Shown here: one piece after another, positions 48,340-60,355 of the stretch | Layout of the letters: every line of letters begins with the position of its first letter | Position numbering within the stretch: the stretch's first letter is position 1 | NCBI GenBank assembly: GCA_016214265.1 | Contig: JACROU010000037.1 | Coordinates: 3,859 to 67,858, forward strand | From: Candidatus Omnitrophota bacterium | Lineage (GTDB): Bacteria; Omnitrophota; Omnitrophia; Omnitrophales; JACROU01 | Length of the DNA: 64,000 bases | Direction of reading: 5' to 3' | Program-made: the position numbers and the translations under genes | Notes under the pieces: generated by a model | Told to the model about the DNA's origin: nothing | The model's input: only the letters and a program-made list of their open reading frames with translations | The model's database searches: none

Positions 48340-50346
<2,007 letters not shown>

Positions 50347-50374
50347 AATAATAGTAAGAAGAGAGGTTGGTACG

Positions 50375-51049
50375 ATGGCGCTGAAATTAAAAGATATTCC
50401 CTTATTTCATGGTCTTTCTGAAAGCGAACTTGCAGTAGTAAGACTCTGCTTGAAAGAGAAAACGTTCCAAAAAGGCGAGCTTCTATTTAATGAAGGGAAA
50501 TCCTGCGAGCGGGTGTTCATCGTTCAGCAGGGTCGCGTGAAACTGTACCGGATCGCCTCGTCGGGCCGCGAGCAAATTCTTGAAACCTTGGGGCCCGGTG
50601 ATACATGCGCCTGCAATCCCGGCGCCCAGGTTTGGTGTTGTACGACAACTGCGGAAGCGGTGACGCCGTGCAAGGTGTGGTTTTTGTCGCGGGAAGATTA
50701 TGTGAAAATGGTGCAAACCAATTCAAAAGTCAGCCAGGCCCTCAACCGGCTTTTTGCGGACCGTCTGAAAGCCTTCAGTTCACTTATCGAGGAAGTTTCG
50801 CTTAAAGACGTCAAAAAACGCCTCATCAAATTTCTTTTAGAGATGCACGCTGAGCGGAAAAGAAAATACGGGCAGGGTGACGCGATGTTTATTCCTTTCA
50901 CGCGCGAAGAAATTGCCCAAAGAATCGGTTCGGCCCGTGAGACAGTGGTGCGTTATCTTATGCAGTTGAAACGTTGTAAGCTCATCGATTTAAAACCGCA
51001 TCAAATTATCATTTGCGATCAGCACGGCCTCGAAAAACTCCTTCAGTAA
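50375..51049 (+). CDS. Crp/Fnr-family transcriptional regulator (cNMP-binding + C-terminal HTH)
   Basis: LFHGLSESELAVV...FNEGKSCERVFIVQQGRVKLY cNMP fold. C-terminal HTH REEIAQRIGSARETVVRYL. Confidence 0.8.
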   Translation: MALKLKDIPLFHGLSESELAVVRLCLKEKTFQKGELLFNEGKSCERVFIVQQGRVKLYRIASSGREQILETLGPGDTCACNPGAQVWCCTTTAEAVTPCKVWFLSREDYVKMVQTNSKVSQALNRLFADRLKAFSSLIEEVSLKDVKKRLIKFLLEMHAERKRKYGQGDAMFIPFTREEIAQRIGSARETVVRYLMQLKRCKLIDLKPHQIIICDQHGLEKLLQ

Positions 51050-51202
51050 TTGTCTTTTTTTTCGCATAACCAGTTCTGAAGGAGAAATCTCGCCGTGAGT
51101 TCTCCTTCGGAGTTGCTCGCAAGCCTTAGATTGTGACCCTGGTCACTGCTTAAAACGAAAGCTTTGTGTATCTTTGCCACATCAAAACAGGAGGTTGTTA
51201 TG

Positions 51203-51373
51203 GCTACTCCAAAAATCCAGAAATCGATGCCTCAAACAAAAAAAGAAAAGAAGATCTCTCGCGAAGAAATTGCCCGGCTGGCCTTCGAGCTCTACGAGAA
51301 AGACGGCAGGGAAGAGGGTAAGGATCTTGAGCATTGGTTTGAAGCCGAAAGGATTTTGAGGTCGCATCAATAA
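51203..51373 (+). CDS. DUF2934-like small protein
   Basis: AGGAGG RBS. EEIARLAFELYEKDGREEGKDLEHWFEAERIL matches the DUF2934 signature. Confidence 0.4.
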   Translation, partial: ATPKIQKSMPQTKKEKKISREEIARLAFELYEKDGREEGKDLEHWFEAERILRSHQ

Positions 51374-51382
51374 GCAAATAAC

Positions 51383-52171
51383 ATGACCATTCCGCTTCAA
51401 AATTCGGTTGTCTATGGCCCCATACAATCCCGCCGACTGGGGAATTCTTTGGGCATCAATGTGCTTCCGACTGACATTAAATTTTGCCTTTCAAGCTGCA
51501 TCTATTGCCAATATGGCTGGACTGACTTGAGCGCGATGCAAAAAGTGAAACTTCATCCTGCCACAGAGCTGGTGAAGGAAATCGAGGACAGTTTTAAAAA
51601 AATATTTTCAACCGGCACCATCATTGACTCCATCACTTTTTCCGGCAACGGTGAGTCCACGCTGCATCCCGAATTCGGAACTTTAGTCCGGGAAGTTAAG
51701 CGATTGCGCAATCACTATTTTCCTGCCATCCCCGTTTCAATCCTTTCAGATTCTTCCCGGGTTTATCTTCCCGAAGTGCGTGAAGCCCTGGAGAAATTGG
51801 ACGAGCGGTATATGAAACTAGACACGGGCGATCAGGAAATGTATCAGAAAATAAACAATCCGGTTGTAAAGGCGGATTGGAACCGGATCGTCGACGGGCT
51901 CAGCCGTCTTTCTCAGGTGACATTGCAGAGTCTTTTTCTATCAGAGCCTGTAGATAATTCAAGCGGGGAAGCTCTTAACCGCTGGCTTGCAGCGCTCGCA
52001 CGTATTCATCCTGTCGGCCTTCAAATTTATACTGTATACCGTGATACGGCGGATCCGAAAGTAAAGTCGGTGACGTCGAAACGGCTGTCTGAAATCGCGC
52101 ATTTGGCCTGTCAAGTAACGGACTTGAGTACGGTGACTGCGGTCACAGATACTTTTTTGGAATTGATGTAG
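51383..52171 (+). CDS. Radical SAM domain protein
   Basis: CLSSCIYCQ (Cx3Cx2C) preceded by a GPIQSRRLGNSLGIN block. Confidence 0.55.
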   Translation: MTIPLQNSVVYGPIQSRRLGNSLGINVLPTDIKFCLSSCIYCQYGWTDLSAMQKVKLHPATELVKEIEDSFKKIFSTGTIIDSITFSGNGESTLHPEFGTLVREVKRLRNHYFPAIPVSILSDSSRVYLPEVREALEKLDERYMKLDTGDQEMYQKINNPVVKADWNRIVDGLSRLSQVTLQSLFLSEPVDNSSGEALNRWLAALARIHPVGLQIYTVYRDTADPKVKSVTSKRLSEIAHLACQVTDLSTVTAVTDTFLELM

Positions 52172-52195
52172 CTTTTTTCCGAGAGGTCGGACGAG

Positions 52196-52720
52196 ATGGC
52201 GCACAAGAAAAAAGAATTTAATGTGGTTCAATTACTCGAAAAAAGTCACGATGAGACTTTTCAGAGGACCGATCAATTTCGTGATCTGTTAATCAATCTG
52301 CGTTACGAAGGCAAGTTGTCACTGGGCAAAAACCTAAAGCAGGCCGAAGATGTGCTTAAGTTTTTTAGCCAGGAGCATGCCGGGCATATGCAGTTCGAAG
52401 AAGAAATCCTTTTCCCTTATTTAAAATCTCACGTGCCGAAACTTGAGCCGGTAATTTATCTTCTTCATGCGGAACATTTGGATTTTAAGAACAACCTGAA
52501 AAATTTTGAGAATCTCATCGGTGAGCTTTCCAAAGAAAGGCAGGAAAGCGACCGCGCCGTCATTTTTGAAAAAATCAGAGAAACAGGGGCTTATCTTATT
52601 TTCCTTCTCAGAAGTCACAATCAGTCTGAAAGTGAAAGCGTGTATAAAGTGATCGATCGTGAACTCCATGACGATGAGAAGGAAGAGCTTGCTGAAAAAA
52701 TAGAGAAGTTTCTGCCGTAA
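52196..52720 (+). CDS. Hemerythrin-like (HHE cation-binding) domain protein
   Basis: H/E-rich pairs (EHAGHMQFEEEILFPYL; HAEHLDF). Paralogous to the C-terminus of 14705..15628. Confidence 0.55.
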   Translation: MAHKKKEFNVVQLLEKSHDETFQRTDQFRDLLINLRYEGKLSLGKNLKQAEDVLKFFSQEHAGHMQFEEEILFPYLKSHVPKLEPVIYLLHAEHLDFKNNLKNFENLIGELSKERQESDRAVIFEKIRETGAYLIFLLRSHNQSESESVYKVIDRELHDDEKEELAEKIEKFLP

Positions 52721-52738
52721 CCGGAAAAACCCAAATCC

Positions 52739-52981
52739 ATGAAGCAAACTTACAAATGGCTGCCCGTAATAAAAAAAGAAAATTGTACGGGCTGTGGTTT
52801 ATGCGTTGAAGCATGTACGCCAAAATGTTTAGAGGTTGTCGATGGTGTTGTTGTTCTCACGCTTCCGATTCTTTGCGGAAGTGAGGAGCATTGCATTTCA
52901 CCTTGTAACTATGAAGCCATTGAGATGAAATGGGTGCCTGCGCCCGGACGTGACTATATCGGTTTGTGGCACGAAAAATAG
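52739..52981 (+). CDS. Small ferredoxin-like [4Fe-4S] protein
   Basis: CTGCGLCVEACTP Cx2Cx2Cx3CP motif plus additional Cys. Confidence 0.5.
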   Translation: MKQTYKWLPVIKKENCTGCGLCVEACTPKCLEVVDGVVVLTLPILCGSEEHCISPCNYEAIEMKWVPAPGRDYIGLWHEK

Positions 52982-53011
52982 TTTTCCCTCCATATTTATA
53001 TTCTGACATTA

Positions 53012-53027
53012 TGTGATCACCGTCACA
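53012..53027. promoter_or_regulatory. CRP-family-like site TGTGATCACCGTCACA upstream of rrf2-nosZ
   Basis: TGTGA-N6-TCACA. Extended match ATGTGANNNNCGTCACAGTTTT with the site at 13799. About 95 bp upstream of the Rrf2 start. Confidence 0.4.
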
Positions 53028-53121
53028 GTTTTTGATCTTCTTGAAATGTATGATAATAATGTGGATGTTAGTATCCATAATTTGAACGTTTATTCGTTTC
53101 TGTCTGAAGGGAATCTGAATT

Positions 53122-53589
53122 ATGTTCCGCCTGTATTCAAAAGGCTGTGAGTACGTAATCCGCGCATTGGCGCTTGTGAATGCCTCAAAAGAGGGGCGGT
53201 GTTTTTCTGTTAAGGATATTTGCAGAAAGGCCCGGTTGCCGGAATGGTATACCCGGAAGGTTTTTCAATCGTTGGTTCGAAACGGTTATTTAGAGGCTTC
53301 GCGCGGCCCGGGGGGTGGTTACACGTTAAAAGTCCACCCCAGTAAAATTTCGCTGTTAAATATGATCCGCGCAGTTGATGGTAAGGATGTTTTAGATCAA
53401 TGCATGATGAGTTCGGGAAAATGCAAGAACAAGAAATCCTGTGTGATGCATAACAAGTGGATTAGGATAAAAGAAAGTGTGGTTCGGGAATTAAAGTCGG
53501 TTACGGTTCAAGATCTAATGGATTTAACTTCTGGCAGAAGCAAACATGTTTCAACATTAAAAAGGAGGCATGAATCAAATGGGCATTAA
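53122..53589 (+). CDS. Rrf2-family transcriptional regulator (NsrR/IscR-like, 3-Cys)
   Basis: N-terminal wHTH (CEYVIRALALV...VKDICRKARLPEWYTRKVFQSLVRNGYLEASRGPGGGYTL) plus three C-terminal Cys. Confidence 0.8.
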   Translation: MFRLYSKGCEYVIRALALVNASKEGRCFSVKDICRKARLPEWYTRKVFQSLVRNGYLEASRGPGGGYTLKVHPSKISLLNMIRAVDGKDVLDQCMMSSGKCKNKKSCVMHNKWIRIKESVVRELKSVTVQDLMDLTSGRSKHVSTLKRRHESNGH

Positions 53590-55597
53590 AAACTGGAAAT
53601 GGTTTGCCGTGCTGGTCGCGGTGATTTTTGCGGGAGGTTTGTTTTTTCTCGGCAAGCCCGCAATGAAGGAGGTCAGCGCCGTGCAGGCGCCTGGACTCCC
53701 TGCGGACTCCATGCAGGTTATCCAAAAGAGAGGATTGAGCCCAGATGATGTTTTTGGCGCTCTGTCAACGTATGTGCCAACCGGGAAATATGATGAATAT
53801 TATATGTTTGCGTCGGGTGGGCATGGCGGACAAGTTTTGGTGATAGGCCTTCCTTCGATGAGACTGCTTCGAGTGATTGCCGTGTTTGAGCCGGAGTCAT
53901 GGCAGGGATACGGATTTGGCGTGAAAGAAAATCCGCTGGTCAATAAAACAGAAACTATTCCGGGACAGAAACCCAAAGATCTGTCTTGGGCGGATACGCA
54001 TCATCCCGGCCTCAGTGAAACAGACGGAAAATATGACGGCCAGTTTTTGTTTATCGGGGATAAAGCAAATGGCCGTTTAGCGGTAATTGATTTACGGGAT
54101 TTTGAAACGAAGCAGATTGTGGATAATCCCGTAGTCAATAACGATCACGGAGCCGCGTTTGTCACGCCAAACACGGAATATGTGGTGGAGTCGACGCAAT
54201 TTTCAGTTCCGCTCGGAGGCAAATACGCGCCGATTTCAGATTATCAAAAAGAATATCGCGGATTGGCTACGTTCTGGAAATTCGACCGGGCCAAAGGCCG
54301 TATTGATGGGGAAAAATCATTCGCGCTTGAATTGCCTCCGTACTGGCAGGATTTAGCCGATGCGGGAAAAGGGCCCAGCGACGGGTTTGTGTTCATCAAC
54401 TCGTTTAATACAGAAATGGCGACAGGGGGCATTGAGGAAGGAAATCCTCCGTTTGAGGCCGGCGTGTCTCAGCGGGATATGGATTATCTGCACGTGATTA
54501 ATTGGAAGAAAGCGGAAGAAGTAGTGCAGCAGGGCAAGTTCAAAGTCGTGAACGGGATGAAAGTGATTCCGCTCGATGTTTCCGCTGCGGAAGGGCTTCT
54601 TTATTTTATTCCCGAGCCGAAGAGTCCGCACGGAGTCGACATCACACCGAGCGGGAAGCATATCGTGATTGGCGGCAAGTTGGATCCGCACGTGACGATT
54701 TACGCCATCGATTTGATCCAGCAGGCGATTGAGAAAAAAGATTATGAGGGCACGGATCCGTACGGCATTCCGATTCTGAGATTCGATGCCGTGAAAAAAG
54801 CGCAGGTCGAATTGGGGTTGGGACCGCTACACACGCAGTTTGACAATCACGGTTACGCGTACACCAGCTTGTTTCTGGAAAGCGCCGTTGCCCGATGGAC
54901 GTTGGGCGACGATAAGTTTCAAGCCCCGGAAAAACCCTGGACGTTGGTGAGCAAAATCCCCGTTTCGTACAACGTGGGGCATATCGCTGTGGCTCAGGGC
55001 GACACAGTGGAGCCGGACGGGAATTATTTGGTCGCGCTCAACAAATGGTCGGTGGACCGGTTTCCCAACATCGGACCGCTTTTGCCGCAGAATCTTCAGC
55101 TGATCGACATCGCGCAAACCGGAGATCACATGAAGCTTCTGTACGATATGCCGATCGGGATGGCGGAGCCGCATTACGCTCAAATTGTCAGGGCCGACAA
55201 AATCAAAGCCTGGGAAGTGTATCCGGAAGTTGGGTGGAACGCGGAGACGCAATCGAAGAGTAATACCGCGGCTACTGAAAGCAAGGTCGTGCGGAGTGGC
55301 AACAATGTGGAAATTTTTATGACCGCTTTGCGCAGTCACTTTGATCCGGAACATATTAAGGTCAAACAGGGCGATCACGTGACGCTTCACATCACCAACA
55401 TGGAAAGAACCCGCGACGCCACCCACGGTTTCAACATTTCGAATTATAACATTGCGGCCAGTATGGAACCGGGTGAGACTGTGGATATTGATTTTATCGC
55501 CGATAAACCGGGCGTGTTTCCGTATTACTGCCTGGAGTTTTGTTCTGCGCTGCATCTGGAAATGATGGGTTATCTGATGGTAGAACCTGCGGAATAG
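53570..55597 (+). CDS. nosZ: Nitrous-oxide reductase NosZ with Sec-type signal (clade II-like); ATG at 53579 is the better-spaced start
   Basis: Seven-bladed propeller CuZ-domain His-containing blocks. C-terminal CuA motif CLEFCSALHLEMMGY. No RR motif in the signal peptide. Confidence 0.92.
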   Translation: MNQMGIKNWKWFAVLVAVIFAGGLFFLGKPAMKEVSAVQAPGLPADSMQVIQKRGLSPDDVFGALSTYVPTGKYDEYYMFASGGHGGQVLVIGLPSMRLLRVIAVFEPESWQGYGFGVKENPLVNKTETIPGQKPKDLSWADTHHPGLSETDGKYDGQFLFIGDKANGRLAVIDLRDFETKQIVDNPVVNNDHGAAFVTPNTEYVVESTQFSVPLGGKYAPISDYQKEYRGLATFWKFDRAKGRIDGEKSFALELPPYWQDLADAGKGPSDGFVFINSFNTEMATGGIEEGNPPFEAGVSQRDMDYLHVINWKKAEEVVQQGKFKVVNGMKVIPLDVSAAEGLLYFIPEPKSPHGVDITPSGKHIVIGGKLDPHVTIYAIDLIQQAIEKKDYEGTDPYGIPILRFDAVKKAQVELGLGPLHTQFDNHGYAYTSLFLESAVARWTLGDDKFQAPEKPWTLVSKIPVSYNVGHIAVAQGDTVEPDGNYLVALNKWSVDRFPNIGPLLPQNLQLIDIAQTGDHMKLLYDMPIGMAEPHYAQIVRADKIKAWEVYPEVGWNAETQSKSNTAATESKVVRSGNNVEIFMTALRSHFDPEHIKVKQGDHVTLHITNMERTRDATHGFNISNYNIAASMEPGETVDIDFIADKPGVFPYYCLEFCSALHLEMMGYLMVEPAE

Positions 55598-55600
55598 TTT

Positions 55601-58363
55601 ATGTCAGGACCAGGTCTTGAAAATCAAGACCTGGTCCTGGATTGGGAATCGTTCATGGAAAAAAAGACGGGAGTAAGGGCGCCTCGCGAGGCGCCCCTAC
55701 TGACGAGCCTATTGCTTGTGGCGGGAATTATTTTACTGCTTTTTTCTCTCGTTTTTCCTTACTGGAAAATTCACGTCATCGCTCCGCAGTACCCGAAGGG
55801 ATTAAACATTTCGATATTTGTCAATCATCTTGAAGGCGATGTTCAAGAAATTGACATGTTGAATCACTATATTGGAATGAAAATGCTGGGCAAAGCCGCT
55901 CAGATTGAGCGCAGCGTTGCGATTGCGGGTATTTCAACCATCACACTTTCGCTTCTTGTCGCACTTTTTTTGCGGCGCCGATGGTCGATTTTGTTTATTC
56001 TTCCGGCTATTTTCTTTCCCTCCATTTTCGCGCTAGACCTTTTTCTCTGGTTAAGAGATTACGGGCTTCACCTGGATCCGCATGCTCCGTTAAGTTCTTC
56101 CATCAAACCTTTTGTCCCGACGCTTTTCGGGAAAGGGATTATCGGTCAGTTTAAATCCATTTCATCGTTTGAAATCGGATTTTATTTCAGTGTTCTTGCG
56201 GCATTGTTAGCTTCCGTCGCTTCGATTCTGCGTTTCGGCGGCGGGAAAAAAATAGCGCATCAAATAATTCCCCTCGCTATCGGCCTTTCAGTCCTTTTCG
56301 GATCTTCTTCGGCCATCGCTAAAACAATTGATGTGATGACCGAATGTCCGGTGATGGATATTCAGCATGCTCTTGCCATTGCCGAACCCGGGGACACGAT
56401 TCGAGTTCACGGCGGCCGGGTGTATCACGGCCCGTGGGTGATTGATAAATCGGTAAAACTTGTCGGAGAAAATTTCCCCGTGATTGACGGCGGGGGAAAA
56501 GGAACCGTGGTGGATCTCCGGGCGCCTAACATTGAGATGCGGGGATTCGAGATTCGCGGGAGCGGCAATTCCCTCGTGGGCGAGGACACGGGAATTGTGG
56601 CGGAGGCGCCCGGCATTTTATTGGAAGACAATCGCCTGGATGACGTTCTTTTCGGGATTTCTCTGAAGCGCGCGCCGAAGTCGACCCTACGCGGCAATAC
56701 ACTTCACGGCAAAAGTCTTCCCGAGGCCCGCCGCGGCGATTTGATTCGCGTTTGGTACAGCGATGATGTGGTGCTGGACGGTAATCACACGACGGAAGGC
56801 CGCGACGCCGTGATCTGGTTTTCAAAACACGTGCTCCTTGAAAATAATATTTTTGAAGGCGGTCGTTACGGCCTGCATTACATGTATTGCGATGATTCCA
56901 CGGTGAAAAATAATATGTTCACCGGAAATTCCGTGGGTGTTTATATGATGTACAGTGAGCGCATTCAAATTCTTGGGAACCGGATTCTGAATAATCGCGG
57001 GCCCAGCGGATTTGGAATCGGCTTGAAAGATATGAGCAATGCTAAAGTTGAAAATAACATCATCGCGAATAACCGGGTGGGGATGTTCTTTGACGGGGCA
57101 ACGGGGGATTACCAACGAAATCTGATCGCGTTTAATGATATCGGCATTACCTTGCTTTCATCCTCTCAGCGCAATCATTTTAAGGAAAATAGTTTTGTCG
57201 AAAACGCCGAACAGGTGATTATCGAAGGCATGGGATCCACGATGTTGAATGACTGGAACGGGAATTTCTGGAGTGATTATCGCGGTGTGGATGCGAATCA
57301 AGACGGAGCGGGTGACAGACCGTATCAATCGAGAAAGCTATTCGAAAGACTGGTGGACCGGTATCCCGTTCTCAAACTTTTTTCGGCCAGTCCGTCCACG
57401 CAGGCGATTGATTTTGCCTCATCCACGTTTCCCGTTTTTGCGCCTCAGTCCCGGTTCCAGGATGCTGCCCCGCTTACGAATCCGGTTTTGCCCGAGGTGC
57501 GTGTTGAAACCGGGAAGCGATCATGGCCGTTTGTGATGATTTCGGGGATGTTGTTTTTGCCCATTTTGGGGCTTACAATCAGGAATCGATCGGACCTAAA
57601 ACACGGACTACCAATGCCATCAACCTCGACATCTTCAACTTTAGAATCCAACATCGCGATTCAAGTTTCCGAACTCACAAAAAATTTCGGAAAAGTCCAC
57701 GCGCTGAAACAAGTCAGCTTTCAGGTGAAACAGGGAGAAACGCTGGTGTTGTGGGGGCCGAACGGGGCCGGCAAGACGACGGTGCTTCGCTCGCTGCTCG
57801 GCATTATTCCATTTGAGGGCCAATTGAATGTTTGGGGGCTTGATGTGCGCTCGGCCGGAAAAGCCGTGCGGCGCGAGATCGGTTACGTGCCGCAGGAAAT
57901 CCGGTTTTACAACGATCAAACGGTTTGGGAGACGATTTGTTTTTTTGGACGGCTTCGCCGGGTCAGCAAAGAACGGGCGAAGCAGCTTCTCAAGGAATGG
58001 GATTTGGAAGCCTCCGTTCAAAAAAAAGTGAACGCGCTTTCGGGCGGGATGAAACAGCGGCTGGCTTTGGTGGTTTCTCTGTTGTCGGATCCGCCGATTA
58101 TTTTTCTGGATGAAGCCACCAGTCATTTGGATGTTCAGTCCCGCCGTGAATTTATCGCCCTGCTCGAGCGTCTTAAAAAAATGGGGAAGACTCTGATGTT
58201 GTGTTCACACCGTTCCAGCGAAGTGTGGAAATTGGCCGACCGGGTGCTCGTTCTGGATCAGGGGCTTAAAGTGATCGAGGGTTCGCCGGAAGAAGTGGTG
58301 CTTCATTTGGGCAAGGGAGCCTCCAATTGGTCCGCCGGCGGACCAATTGAGAGGGGCGATTGA
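55601..58363 (+). CDS. nosDF: Single 920-aa ORF: N-terminal 5-TM NosB-like domain + periplasmic NosD (parallel beta-helix) + TM + cytoplasmic ABC ATPase NosF
   Basis: Uninterrupted frame. NosD-type beta-helix repeats (…NNIFEGGRYGLHYMY…NNMFTGNSVGVYMMY…). Walker A GPNGAGKTT, ABC signature LSGGMKQRLAL, Walker B IIFLDEATSHLD. Hydropathy gives a topologically consistent arrangement. Confidence 0.8.
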   Translation: MSGPGLENQDLVLDWESFMEKKTGVRAPREAPLLTSLLLVAGIILLLFSLVFPYWKIHVIAPQYPKGLNISIFVNHLEGDVQEIDMLNHYIGMKMLGKAAQIERSVAIAGISTITLSLLVALFLRRRWSILFILPAIFFPSIFALDLFLWLRDYGLHLDPHAPLSSSIKPFVPTLFGKGIIGQFKSISSFEIGFYFSVLAALLASVASILRFGGGKKIAHQIIPLAIGLSVLFGSSSAIAKTIDVMTECPVMDIQHALAIAEPGDTIRVHGGRVYHGPWVIDKSVKLVGENFPVIDGGGKGTVVDLRAPNIEMRGFEIRGSGNSLVGEDTGIVAEAPGILLEDNRLDDVLFGISLKRAPKSTLRGNTLHGKSLPEARRGDLIRVWYSDDVVLDGNHTTEGRDAVIWFSKHVLLENNIFEGGRYGLHYMYCDDSTVKNNMFTGNSVGVYMMYSERIQILGNRILNNRGPSGFGIGLKDMSNAKVENNIIANNRVGMFFDGATGDYQRNLIAFNDIGITLLSSSQRNHFKENSFVENAEQVIIEGMGSTMLNDWNGNFWSDYRGVDANQDGAGDRPYQSRKLFERLVDRYPVLKLFSASPSTQAIDFASSTFPVFAPQSRFQDAAPLTNPVLPEVRVETGKRSWPFVMISGMLFLPILGLTIRNRSDLKHGLPMPSTSTSSTLESNIAIQVSELTKNFGKVHALKQVSFQVKQGETLVLWGPNGAGKTTVLRSLLGIIPFEGQLNVWGLDVRSAGKAVRREIGYVPQEIRFYNDQTVWETICFFGRLRRVSKERAKQLLKEWDLEASVQKKVNALSGGMKQRLALVVSLLSDPPIIFLDEATSHLDVQSRREFIALLERLKKMGKTLMLCSHRSSEVWKLADRVLVLDQGLKVIEGSPEEVVLHLGKGASNWSAGGPIERGD
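55607..55637 (+). terminator. Perfect 14-bp stem / 3-nt loop hairpin immediately 3' of the nosZ stop, inside the annotated 5' end of the next ORF
   Basis: GGACCAGGTCTTGA-aaa-TCAAGACCTGGTCC. Likely an mRNA 3' stabiliser or partial terminator. Suggests the downstream gene starts at ATG 55655. Confidence 0.4.
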
Positions 58364-59193
58364 TGGATCTTGTGAATGTCGGAATTATTTTGAGGAAGGA
58401 AATCGAGGATGCCCGGCGCAATCGCTGGTTTATTCTGCTTTCCGTTATTTTTTCAGGCCTGACTCTGACACTTTGTCTGTTTGGCTATTCCGGACTCGGC
58501 AATTTCGGTGTGGCGGGGTTCGGAAGAACGGCCGCGAGCATTCTCAATCTGGTGCTCTTGATTGTGCCGCTGATGGGACTCGTGCTCGGCGCGGTGAGCA
58601 TTTCCGGGGAGCGGGAGCACGGAACCTTGCTGATGCTCCTGGCGCAGCCCGTGACATCGTCGGAAATTCTCGTGGGAAAATATTTGGGTGTCGCGATCGC
58701 GGTGAGCGGCTCGCTTTTACTCGGTTTCGGATTAAGCGGCATGGTGATCGGATGGTACGGCGGCGCGGCTAATGTCGCCGGATATTTGATTTTGGTGGGA
58801 TTCACGTTGCTGCTTGGACTGGTGACGCTCGGACTCGGATTTTGTTTATCGGTATTTAATCACAAAAGCGCGACTGCTATCGGAGGCGCCATTTTCGTGT
58901 GGTTTTTGCTTTTGTTCATCAGTGATTTGGGCATGATGGGAACGGCGATGGTGCTGAAATTGGCTCCGCGAGTCCTGCTGTGGTTTACTTTTCTTAATCC
59001 TGTTCAGGTATTCCGATTGGCGGTGATCAATCTTCTGCACGGTGATTTGGAAAGCTTGGGCGGAGTCGGAACTTATGCGATGGAGGTTTTCGGCAGCGGA
59101 GCAACCTGGTTCTTTGCCGGTTTCTTATTTTTATGGGTTGTTGTACCATTGGTGTTATCATTGGTTGTTTTCAAAAGGAAATGTGTTTTATGA
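58360..59193 (+). CDS. nosY: ABC-2 type permease NosY
   Basis: 6-TM. Start overlaps the nosDF stop (ATGA). Confidence 0.8.
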   Translation: MMDLVNVGIILRKEIEDARRNRWFILLSVIFSGLTLTLCLFGYSGLGNFGVAGFGRTAASILNLVLLIVPLMGLVLGAVSISGEREHGTLLMLLAQPVTSSEILVGKYLGVAIAVSGSLLLGFGLSGMVIGWYGGAANVAGYLILVGFTLLLGLVTLGLGFCLSVFNHKSATAIGGAIFVWFLLLFISDLGMMGTAMVLKLAPRVLLWFTFLNPVQVFRLAVINLLHGDLESLGGVGTYAMEVFGSGATWFFAGFLFLWVVVPLVLSLVVFKRKCVL

Positions 59194-59642
59194 CGCGAAT
59201 TTTTATCGCCGGACTTCTTTTTTTGCTGATCGGATGCGGGAATAACGCCTTGAATCTTGAGCCGCATATCCGCTACGGCAATGACACGTGCAGTGATTGC
59301 CGCATGATTATCAATGAAGAGCCGTTTGCCGCCGCCATTATTGTTTCGCCTGAGCTTACGGTGAAATTCGACAGCATCAGTTGTTTGCTTCGTTACCATC
59401 AGGAAAACCCGTCCGTCGGTGGAACTATGTGGGTTCACGATTTTGATACGCGGCAGTGGGTGAATGCGCGCTCGGCGTTTTTTGTGCAGAGTAAAGATAT
59501 TTTGACGCCGATGGGCGACGGCTTGCTGGCGTTTTCAAGCCGGGATTCTGCTCAGGCCTGGGTTAACAAGACAAAGGGAACCTTTTACGAATTCTCAGAA
59601 CTTTCCAAAATACAAATCTCAAAGGGAGGCGTTGTTTCATGA
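59190..59642 (+). CDS. nosL: Copper chaperone lipoprotein NosL
   Basis: Lipobox LIGC. CSDCRM…M copper-binding pattern. ATG overlaps the nosY stop. Confidence 0.8.
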   Translation: MTRIFIAGLLFLLIGCGNNALNLEPHIRYGNDTCSDCRMIINEEPFAAAIIVSPELTVKFDSISCLLRYHQENPSVGGTMWVHDFDTRQWVNARSAFFVQSKDILTPMGDGLLAFSSRDSAQAWVNKTKGTFYEFSELSKIQISKGGVVS

Positions 59643-60355
59643 TTAAGAAAATGTTCTTCGGCTTAATGTTGGCGGGAATCGTTTTTAGTTTCCTTTCATC
59701 TGCGATGGCGGACGGCGGGGGGACTATTACGGGAAAAGTTGTTTACAAAGGCGAGGCCATTACACCTCAACCGATCAATTTTGGTCCCGAGAAGGCATGT
59801 GCGGCATCACATAAGGACAAAATGCCGGTAAATGAAGATATTGTAATTAACCCAGACAATACTGTAAAATGGGCCTTTGTACGCATCAAGGAAGATGTCC
59901 CTGGTGATTATCCCGCCCCTACGGATCCTGTCATCATTGAGCAAAACGGATGTATTTTTACTCCACACGGCGCTGCTGTTCGCGTTGGACAGCCAGTGGA
60001 ATTTCATAATAATGATGAGGTGCTGCACAACGTACGCGGAGCGTCAAAAGAGGGGCAGGCTTTTAATGTGGCTCAGCCACTCAAGGGGATGAAGACCAAA
60101 AAGACATTCGCGAAGCCGGAAATGGGGATGCAGCTGAAATGCGATGTTCATTTCTGGATGGCGGCCTATCTTCACGTTATGGCGAATCCGTTTTATGCCA
60201 TCACGGGTGACGACGGCTCTTTTACGATCAAAGATCTTCCGCCGGGCGATTACACGCTGGAGCTTTGGCACGAAAAATTGGGAATACTTACGAAACCTGT
60301 CAGCGTCAAAGCGGGCGAAACGCAAACAGTAGATTTTGAGCTCGAGAAAAAATAA
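59639..60355 (+). CDS. Secreted cupredoxin-like protein (candidate type-1 Cu site His…Cys-x2-His-x2-Met)
   Basis: Signal peptide. HNNDEVLHNV … KCDVHFWM gives an amicyanin-like ligand spacing. Flanking beta-sandwich segments. Translationally coupled to nosL. Confidence 0.5.
   Translation: MIKKMFFGLMLAGIVFSFLSSAMADGGGTITGKVVYKGEAITPQPINFGPEKACAASHKDKMPVNEDIVINPDNTVKWAFVRIKEDVPGDYPAPTDPVIIEQNGCIFTPHGAAVRVGQPVEFHNNDEVLHNVRGASKEGQAFNVAQPLKGMKTKKTFAKPEMGMQLKCDVHFWMAAYLHVMANPFYAITGDDGSFTIKDLPPGDYTLELWHEKLGILTKPVSVKAGETQTVDFELEKK

Follow-up and report, generated by a model that had tools for sequence, protein, structure and literature searches.

In-frame fusion of nosB, nosD and nosF in the clade II nos cluster of an Omnitrophota bacterium

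Results

One reading frame between nosZ and nosY

A 64,000-nucleotide stretch of DNA from Candidatus Omnitrophota bacterium (GCA_016214265.1, contig JACROU010000037.1, positions 3,859 to 67,858; hereafter the window) carries, in this order, genes for an Rrf2 regulator, NosZ, a NosB-NosD-NosF fusion, NosY and NosL, i.e., a clade II nos cluster. The fusion gene lies in a single uninterrupted open reading frame (ORF) on the plus strand at 55601-58363, given as 920 amino acids (aa) in the ORF list of the window; residue numbers below refer to this long frame. Its likeliest coding sequence is 55655..58363 (902 aa and the stop codon). As originally predicted, the one open frame encodes all three modules: an N-terminal NosB domain (aa 19-215, 55655..56245), the periplasmic beta-helix domain of NosD (aa 241-626, 56321..57478) and the ABC ATPase domain of NosF (aa 686-905, 57656..58315). 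NosB and NosD are connected by a joint with an internal signal-peptide-like segment (B-D joint, aa 216-240, 56246..56320); NosD and NosF are connected through a sixth transmembrane (TM) helix (aa 642-660, 57524..57580) and a linker (D-F linker, aa 661-685, 57581-57655). Base composition is uniform along the whole gene. ORFs in other frames over the gene (57249-57536, 57523-57816 and several on the minus strand) lie wholly within well-conserved NosD/NosF coding sequence and were therefore treated as chance frames.

The neighbouring genes nosZ, nosY and nosL are on the same strand. NosZ (53570..55597) is of the Sec type of clade II and matched TIGR04246 with 853.9 bits (cutoff 625), with additional Pfam matches to nos_propeller and cupredoxin domains. 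nosY (58360/58363-59193) encodes the ABC-2 permease partner (PF12679, E 1.7e-37; PDB 7o0y_D, E 1.3e-26), and nosL (59133..59642) encodes the copper chaperone (PF05573, E 7e-16). The probable ATG of nosY overlaps the TGA stop of the fusion gene (TGATG), and 58 nt separate the nosZ stop from the NosB-coding start.

The N-terminal membrane region is a NosB domain

Searched alone against Pfam and NCBIfam at E values up to 10, aa 1-254 returned noise only and no family match. A curated NosB model does not exist; membership was therefore judged via a literature motif, synteny and a published reference sequence. According to PMC9697520, which quotes van Spanning 2011, the motif LNHYIGM is conserved in NosB; the fusion protein carries it letter for letter at aa 87-93 (55859..55879), and all seven positions are invariant in a 40-sequence NosB alignment. 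At the site of a second published motif, YGHN, the window reads YGLH (aa 153-156) and Sulfurimonas denitrificans FGHN; Gly alone (G155) is invariant there, the flanking positions vary, and His is missing from most fused sequences.

Using aa 1-235 as the query, we found 728 homologues, mostly stand-alone proteins of ~215-230 aa, the best with ~50% identity. nosB is defined by its position between nosZ and nosD (PMC11096178), and stand-alone homologues are located exactly at this position in Ardenticatena maritima (ARMA_0979) and a Phycisphaerales genome, both with the gene order Z-B-D-F-Y-L. The NosB reference was S. denitrificans ABB45043.1, listed in Text S1 of PMC11409646, a protein in which NosB is fused to a cytochrome c. 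BLASTP aligned the window protein to it with 27% identity over 169 aa (E 1e-18), and hhalign matched a profile of the stand-alone homologues to it with 99.8% probability (E 2.9e-28). The assignment of aa ~19-215 to NosB is supported by motif, synteny and both kinds of alignment. An unrelated membrane anchor placed ahead of NosD might be suspected from the lack of a Pfam or NCBIfam match in aa 1-253 and from YGLH in place of YGHN; however, the verbatim LNHYIGM, the BLASTP and hhalign matches to S. denitrificans NosB and the ~50% identical stand-alone homologues between nosZ and nosD rule it out, leaving it a negligible probability. The N-terminal TM region thus has the nosB counterpart that the original prediction had supposed.

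In the AlphaFold2 model, the NosB domain (pLDDT 88, pTM 0.78) consists of four TM helices (aa 33-51, 106-124, 130-148 and 192-210) and a five-stranded periplasmic sheet contributed by both loops, with LNHYIGM on a short periplasmic helix. No cofactor-binding or transporter domain is recognisable in it. A nosB deletion in Wolinella, by Hein and co-workers in 2017, is said to have shown that NosB is required for N2O respiration.

In public records, stand-alone NosB proteins are often mislabelled 'copper chaperone NosL' or 'cytochrome C' (P0127, P0130, P0178, P0180, P0183 and others), labels presumably carried over from NosB-NosL and NosB-cytochrome c fusions.

The NosD module and membrane topology

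The central module was recognised as NosD by TIGR04247 (aa 254-626, 396.5 bits, cutoff 300), with model positions 1-376 of 377 covered, by PF05048 (E 7.6e-42) and by the NosD chain of PDB 7o0y_A (E 2e-30). In a 28-sequence alignment its core is conserved, including the GLH(Y/F)MY and LMYS rungs, and H426, M428 and M450 are invariant. The NosD region was modelled mostly with pLDDT 88-98. The full-length model had a pLDDT of 82.5 and a pTM of 0.49, with confident domains and low-confidence linkers, the D-F linker among them, as expected for a single chain modelled outside its complex.

A Kyte-Doolittle scan showed six hydrophobic segments, the four of the NosB domain plus aa 222-240 and 642-660. 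Clusters of positive charge (K21 K22 R26 R29; RRR125-127; R211 K216 K217; R661 R663 K667) all fall on the predicted cytoplasmic side. The predicted topology is N-in with six passes, which places the NosD domain outside and the ATPase inside. It is the self-consistent in/out arrangement proposed originally, and it matches that of the unfused parts. The count of 5 + 1 TM segments in that proposal also stood, but the supposed 5-TM domain did not: the hydrophobic helices of stand-alone NosB number four, and stand-alone clade II NosD carries a signal peptide at its N-terminus and, at its C-terminus, a TM helix with a short basic tail; the N-terminal helices of the fusion therefore correspond to a 4-TM NosB plus the signal peptide of NosD. 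The single TM helix after the beta-helix, judged by the same comparison, is NosD's own membrane anchor. A C-terminal helix has been noted for all five NosD proteins of Bacillus azotoformans (PMC3475470). Of 119 fused homologues, 107 contain a single hydrophobic segment between B and D, and 107 contain a single such segment between D and F.

In unfused relatives, nosB, nosD and nosF are separated by 13-15 bp or show overlaps of 4 bp (the Phycisphaerales cluster, L003). Since all the joined termini already lie on the cytoplasmic side, fusion only needed the loss of two stop codons, with the topology unchanged. Such tightly coupled or overlapping genes would be compatible with separate NosB, NosD and NosF proteins made from one open mRNA frame through internal starts or recoding, in which case the fusion would be without consequence at the protein level. 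Internal initiation is conceivable on sequence grounds, but aa 211-253 contain neither an ATG nor an evident ribosome-binding site, and the open joints are conserved in many lineages. Moreover, internal starts without a stop codon leave the upstream chain unterminated, so the full-length product would still be made. We regard separate products of this origin as very unlikely.

The B-D joint resembles a signal peptide

The B-D joint has a KK-containing n-region, a hydrophobic core (aa 222-236) and a c-region that ends with A-I-A before K241. The cleavage-like site, SSS-A-I-A / K-T-I-D-V, directly precedes the conserved start of mature NosD. The product may therefore be a single precursor that signal peptidase I cuts after A-I-A (aa 238-240) into NosB and NosD-NosF, and we give this reading slightly less than an even chance. 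The freed NosB would keep the former signal peptide as a fifth helix, and only NosD:NosF would be covalently fixed. Such processing is compatible with a genuine gene fusion.

Several features speak for cleavage. The complete anatomy of a signal peptide is found in the B-D linkers of the window and of divergent homologues; the median net charge of the n-region is +2.5, and the uncharged core, with a median length of 14 residues, is short for a TM helix. Positions -3 and -1, immediately ahead of the conserved start of mature NosD, hold small residues: [AVS]x[AG] is present there in 69% of 118 fused proteins, compared to 38% of random 13-residue stretches of the same proteins; for AxA, the proportions are 35% and 11%. 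The orientation of the segment (N-in, C-out) is that on which signal peptidase I acts. There is a precedent in the fbcH polyprotein of Bradyrhizobium japonicum, from which cytochromes b and c1 arise by a cut at an internal signal sequence. On the other side, the motif test is crude and the enrichment just 2-3 fold, the strict motif is missing in ~30% of homologues, and the motif may be a relic of repeated, recent fusions. The D-F joint, consisting of an out-to-in helix followed by a cytoplasmic linker, is not processable by signal peptidase, and the mature protein must retain it.

The NosF module and stoichiometry

The C-terminal domain matched PF00005 (E 9e-30) and the NosF chain of PDB 7o0y_B (E 1.7e-32). 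Walker A, the Q-loop, the signature, Walker B and the H-loop are all intact, and the invariant positions comprise G719, N721, G722, A723, G724, K725 and T727, Q765, L813, S814, G815, G816 and Q819, D837 and E838 (Walker B) and H870 (H-loop). No NosF-specific model matched the ATPase domain above its cutoff. The domain occupies the nosF slot of the unfused clusters and, as there, is followed by nosY.

The NosF module stops 15 residues past the ABC domain (58316-58363, aa 906-920) and is without the ~70-aa C-terminal domain of Pseudomonas stutzeri NosF and of most fused homologues; a minority (P0017, P0041, P0100, P0102 and P0111) have an equally short end.

ABC transporters need two ATPase domains. 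No second NosF-like ORF that could form a heterodimeric ATPase was found in the 64-kb window, so the ATPase dimer would be built from two fusion chains, and we infer a NosD:NosF:NosY ratio of 2:2:2 here. For P. stutzeri, a ratio of 1:2:2 was taken from PDB chain counts (NosD, 16 entries and 16 chains; NosF, 15 and 30; NosY, 17 and 34). One NosD per NosF dimer is not what the fusion specifies; the covalent D-F link implies a D:F ratio of 1:1. The original prediction that the fusion would fix the stoichiometry of the copper-site assembly machinery is secure for NosD:NosF only, because a site resembling that of signal peptidase is retained at the B-D joint and cleavage there may release NosB.

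The fusion recurs in other phyla

The full protein was searched against the database, and the best 120 matches were typed with the window's own domains. NosD and NosF were in one chain in all of these, as the proposed search for NosD-NosF fusions had asked, and 118 also contained NosB. The architectures were B-D-F (108 proteins), B-D-F-Y with NosY fused as well (10 proteins of 1268-1310 aa) and D-F (2 proteins). At least 119 homologues, 41-54% identical to the query, came from NCBI, JGI, ENA and Logan assemblies; the named sources of the best matches include Isosphaeraceae, Gemmataceae, Planctomycetes and 'Armatimonadetes bacterium DC'. The order nosZ-BDF-nosY-nosL is found on an 877-kb contig of Gemmataceae, and the BDFY protein P0097 of 'Armatimonadetes bacterium DC' was found on 16 contigs in the context nosZ-BDFY-nosL. 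The 28-sequence alignment is colinear across both joints; joint length varies, and the frame is always kept.

We further surveyed fusion states in 32 named clade II nos loci of species-representative genomes, among the matches listed. The genome scan was seeded on generic ABC ATPase motifs; loci L038-L084 were mostly unrelated pairs of ABC ATPases, and the closest relatives, Isosphaeraceae and Gemmataceae, were not among the matches listed in it. All nos genes are separate in many of the listed loci, including that in the complete genome of Fontivita pretiosa strain B-254. Among the listed loci, a separate nosB next to a D-F fusion is found in Fraserbacteria, Dehalococcoidia, Thermoflexales, Anaerolineales, Thermoanaerobaculia and one Planctomycetota genome. 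BDF occurs in Elusimicrobiota (L009) and, outside this listing, in Isosphaeraceae and Gemmataceae; BDFY, as one 1257-aa chain, occurs in Anaerolineae SSC4 (L006, 5944-9717). In Vicinamibacterales (L028, 5150-9359), nosL comes first, with a NosB-NosD fusion and then a NosF-NosY fusion behind it. Across phyla, NosB, NosD, NosF and NosY are joined in nearly every neighbouring combination.

In a rough neighbour-joining tree of the NosD domain (150 sequences, without support values), most BDF proteins group together, and the nearest relatives of the window are all fused. Parsimony on this tree requires at least eight changes of state for D-F, at least nine for B-D and at least two for F-Y; based on these numbers, joining and splitting both look recurrent.

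At two of the surveyed loci, in Ca. Hadersleviella danica (L017, 6655-8839) and in Chloroflexia (L030, 3715-7814), nos genes are broken into at least two overlapping frames; the genes affected across the two are nosZ, nosB, nosD or nosF. The broken frames suggest pseudogenes or assembly indel errors, and apparent splits, like apparent fusions, may stem from such errors.

These broken genes, the metagenome-assembled source of the window and the fact that the sole 100% match (NCBI protein P0001) is probably the same record would all be in keeping with an assembly or sequencing artefact, in which separate nosB, nosD and nosF genes seem fused via indels or a mis-join. Against this, at least 119 homologues, 41-54% identical and drawn from four independent data sources, share the single frame; conserved functional elements, not junk, are found in both joints; composition is uniform; and similarity is continuous in one frame on either side of each joint. 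We therefore consider an artefact extremely unlikely. Sequence comparison confirmed the BDF fusion as a widespread variant, neither an error nor a one-off. The fusion is genuine, as had been proposed, given that the joints are in frame and all 120 best matches from independent assemblies have D and F fused. It is not a singular case: such proteins are common, occurring in more than a hundred further uncultured bacteria, and are already in databases under the simple name 'NosD'.

Start codon, hairpins and neighbouring genes

A perfect 17-bp stem-loop (55604..55640, plus strand) begins 7 nt past the nosZ stop and overlaps the ATG at 55601 of the long frame. Its folding energy is -35.1 kcal/mol (z -6.0), and none of 200 shuffles folded as well. 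P0001, 902 aa long, corresponds to a start at ATG 55655. In the 28-sequence alignment the first 18 residues of the long frame are unaligned, and the N-termini of the homologues match from M19. On the basis of the overlapping hairpin, the length of P0001 and the alignment from M19, the true start is most likely ATG 55655, with a product of 902 aa and with 55601-58363 as the longest possible frame.

The stem-loop was also considered as a dispersed repeat, which was rejected; it is present as a single copy in the 64-kb window. GC-rich hairpins directly follow nosZ at four related loci as well (L085, 7925-8005; L086, 7931-8005; L001, 7873-8005; L003, 7928-8005), with a U-run behind them in L086 and L003. 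The stem-loop of the window is probably an intergenic RNA element (transcript end, stabiliser or attenuator), and a hairpin at this position may act as a partial terminator or stabilise the 3' end, so that nosZ mRNA stays more abundant than that of the accessory genes. A second inverted repeat (55672-55701; 13 pairs, 8 of them GC; AGTAAGGGCGCCTCGCGAGGCGCCCCTACT) is located 18 nt past the probable ATG 55655. It is terminator-like when scored on the minus strand and could influence translation initiation.

Upstream of nosZ, there are genes for a Crp/Fnr-like regulator (50324-51049), recognised by reading of the sequence alone, a hemerythrin-domain protein (52196-52720), a small 4Fe-4S ferredoxin (52739-52981) and the Rrf2 regulator (53122-53589), the 3' end of which overlaps the start of nosZ. 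As a module, the upstream set (50324-53589) could plausibly control the nos genes in response to redox state or NO.

After nosL, 59639-60355 encodes a 238-aa secreted protein with a C-terminal CarboxypepD_reg-like domain. Its centre shows cupredoxin-type ligands (H..., then C-D-V-H-F-W-M), and its match to plastocyanin is weak (E 9e-4). In the Gemmataceae cluster L085, a CarboxypepD_reg protein likewise follows nosL, and a dihaem cytochrome c comes next. In clusters without nosG, nosH and nosC, the 238-aa protein might be what donates electrons to NosZ.

Discussion

The gene at 55655-58363 is very probably a genuine, conserved nosBDF fusion in which three neighbouring genes have been joined in frame and the product of which serves the copper loading of NosZ. 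The ~902-aa product would cross the membrane six times, exposing the NosB loops and the NosD beta-helix to the periplasm and keeping the NosF ATPase cytoplasmic. With NosY and NosL it would form a machine that loads copper into NosZ, as NosDFY-NosL does in P. stutzeri. In the proposed sequence of events, NosL passes Cu(I) to NosD; binding and hydrolysis of ATP by the NosF dimer, relayed by NosY, would then switch NosD between copper uptake from NosL and delivery to apo-NosZ. Whether the B-D joint is cut, releasing NosB from NosD-NosF, would be close to a coin toss. Most simply, NosB would be an auxiliary or docking subunit of the copper-loading machinery.

Several points weigh against this interpretation. 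The function of the fused protein is deduced from homology and gene context, and the window derives from a metagenome-assembled genome. Several unrelated ABC ATPases outscore P. stutzeri NosF as matches to the ATPase domain, and the NosF label consequently rests on synteny. The solved clade I complex has one NosD per NosF2Y2, versus two tethered NosD domains here; two NosD domains on one NosY dimer might alternate, or one might be idle. In the structural models, the match of NosB to the claudin/PMP22/TARP-gamma tetraspan fold is at ~10% identity (9-15% overall) and appears to be a resemblance of shape alone; four-helix soluble bundles score similarly, and there is no sign of common ancestry. 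Finally, NosB is also fused to NosL and to cytochrome c, seemingly to whichever gene follows. This weakens the fusion as proof of a specific NosB-NosD contact, and the fusion of NosB may reflect adjacency and compatible topology as much as specific contact.

A more far-reaching possibility, to which we attach only a tentative and rather low probability, is that NosB is a stoichiometric, integrated subunit of the copper-insertion machine, with the composition B2D2F2Y2 or (BDFY)2 and two membrane-tethered NosD domains per transporter. If this were true, the architecture would be unlike that of the solved clade I complex, NosD1F2Y2; the role of NosB, long unknown, would concern the maturation or docking of NosZ and not electron transfer; and the natural single-chain proteins could serve directly as constructs for structural studies.

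NosB occurs mainly in clade II N2O reducers, with exceptions in archaea and Chloroflexota (PMC11409646). Clade II N2O reducers include most of the non-denitrifying N2O sinks. The widespread fusion of NosB to NosD-NosF(-NosY) suggests that NosB acts at the copper-loading ABC machine, and the D-F linkage would mean that a 1:1 ratio of NosD to NosF is tolerated, compared to 1:2 in the only solved complex. Fused proteins of ~900-1300 aa are labelled in public databases just 'NosD' or 'nitrous oxidase accessory protein', so surveys that count nosB, nosF or nosY by name or best match miss the fusions. Phyla with such overlooked fusions are Planctomycetota, Omnitrophota, Chloroflexota, Armatimonadota, Elusimicrobiota and Acidobacteriota. 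The fusion is not a new kind of system, as topology-compatible fusions of adjacent operon genes are ordinary; its use is as a lead to what NosB does and to NosDFY stoichiometry, and as a caution for surveys that count genes.

In a full-text literature search, which left uncovered the subscription literature including the Hein and Simon reviews, we found no paper on NosB-NosD, NosD-NosF or NosB-D-F(-Y) fusions. As the original prediction had assumed, the fusion is apparently undescribed. Foldseek matches of the full-length model in PDB were mainly generic ABC ATPases and gave no further information.

Among known systems, NosDFY(-NosL) of P. stutzeri (PDB 7O0Y) provides the closest functional parallel: homologous NosD, NosF and NosY are encoded in the window, with nosL alongside, and the presumed job, ATP-driven delivery of Cu(I) to apo-NosZ, is the same. 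In P. stutzeri, however, three separate polypeptides assemble as NosD1:NosF2:NosY2, whereas NosD and NosF of the window are covalently linked at 1:1; the P. stutzeri system is of clade I, Tat-type and without NosB, whereas that of the window is of clade II, Sec-type and contains NosB. The alignment reaches residue 419 of 436 in P. stutzeri NosD, which therefore has no room for a C-terminal TM helix.

The unfused clusters of Ardenticatena maritima (L001) and Phycisphaerales (L003) show the gene order that corresponds to the domain order of the window, and their NosB proteins are ~42-48% identical to its NosB domain. Stop codons part B, D and F in these clusters, whereas the window reads through both boundaries.

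Other fusions of NosB have been published, namely NosB-NosL in Dyadobacter and Flavobacterium (PMC9697520) and the NosB-cytochrome c protein 'NosB-NosC2' in Sulfurimonas and other Campylobacterota (Hein et al. 2017, as cited in PMC11409646). Like the protein of the window, they have NosB at the N-terminus, joined to the product of the next gene, and they have in common with it the NosB core as well as the motif LNHY(I/V)GM. Their partner is a chaperone or a cytochrome, whereas in the window the partner is NosD-NosF, a beta-helix followed by an ATPase.

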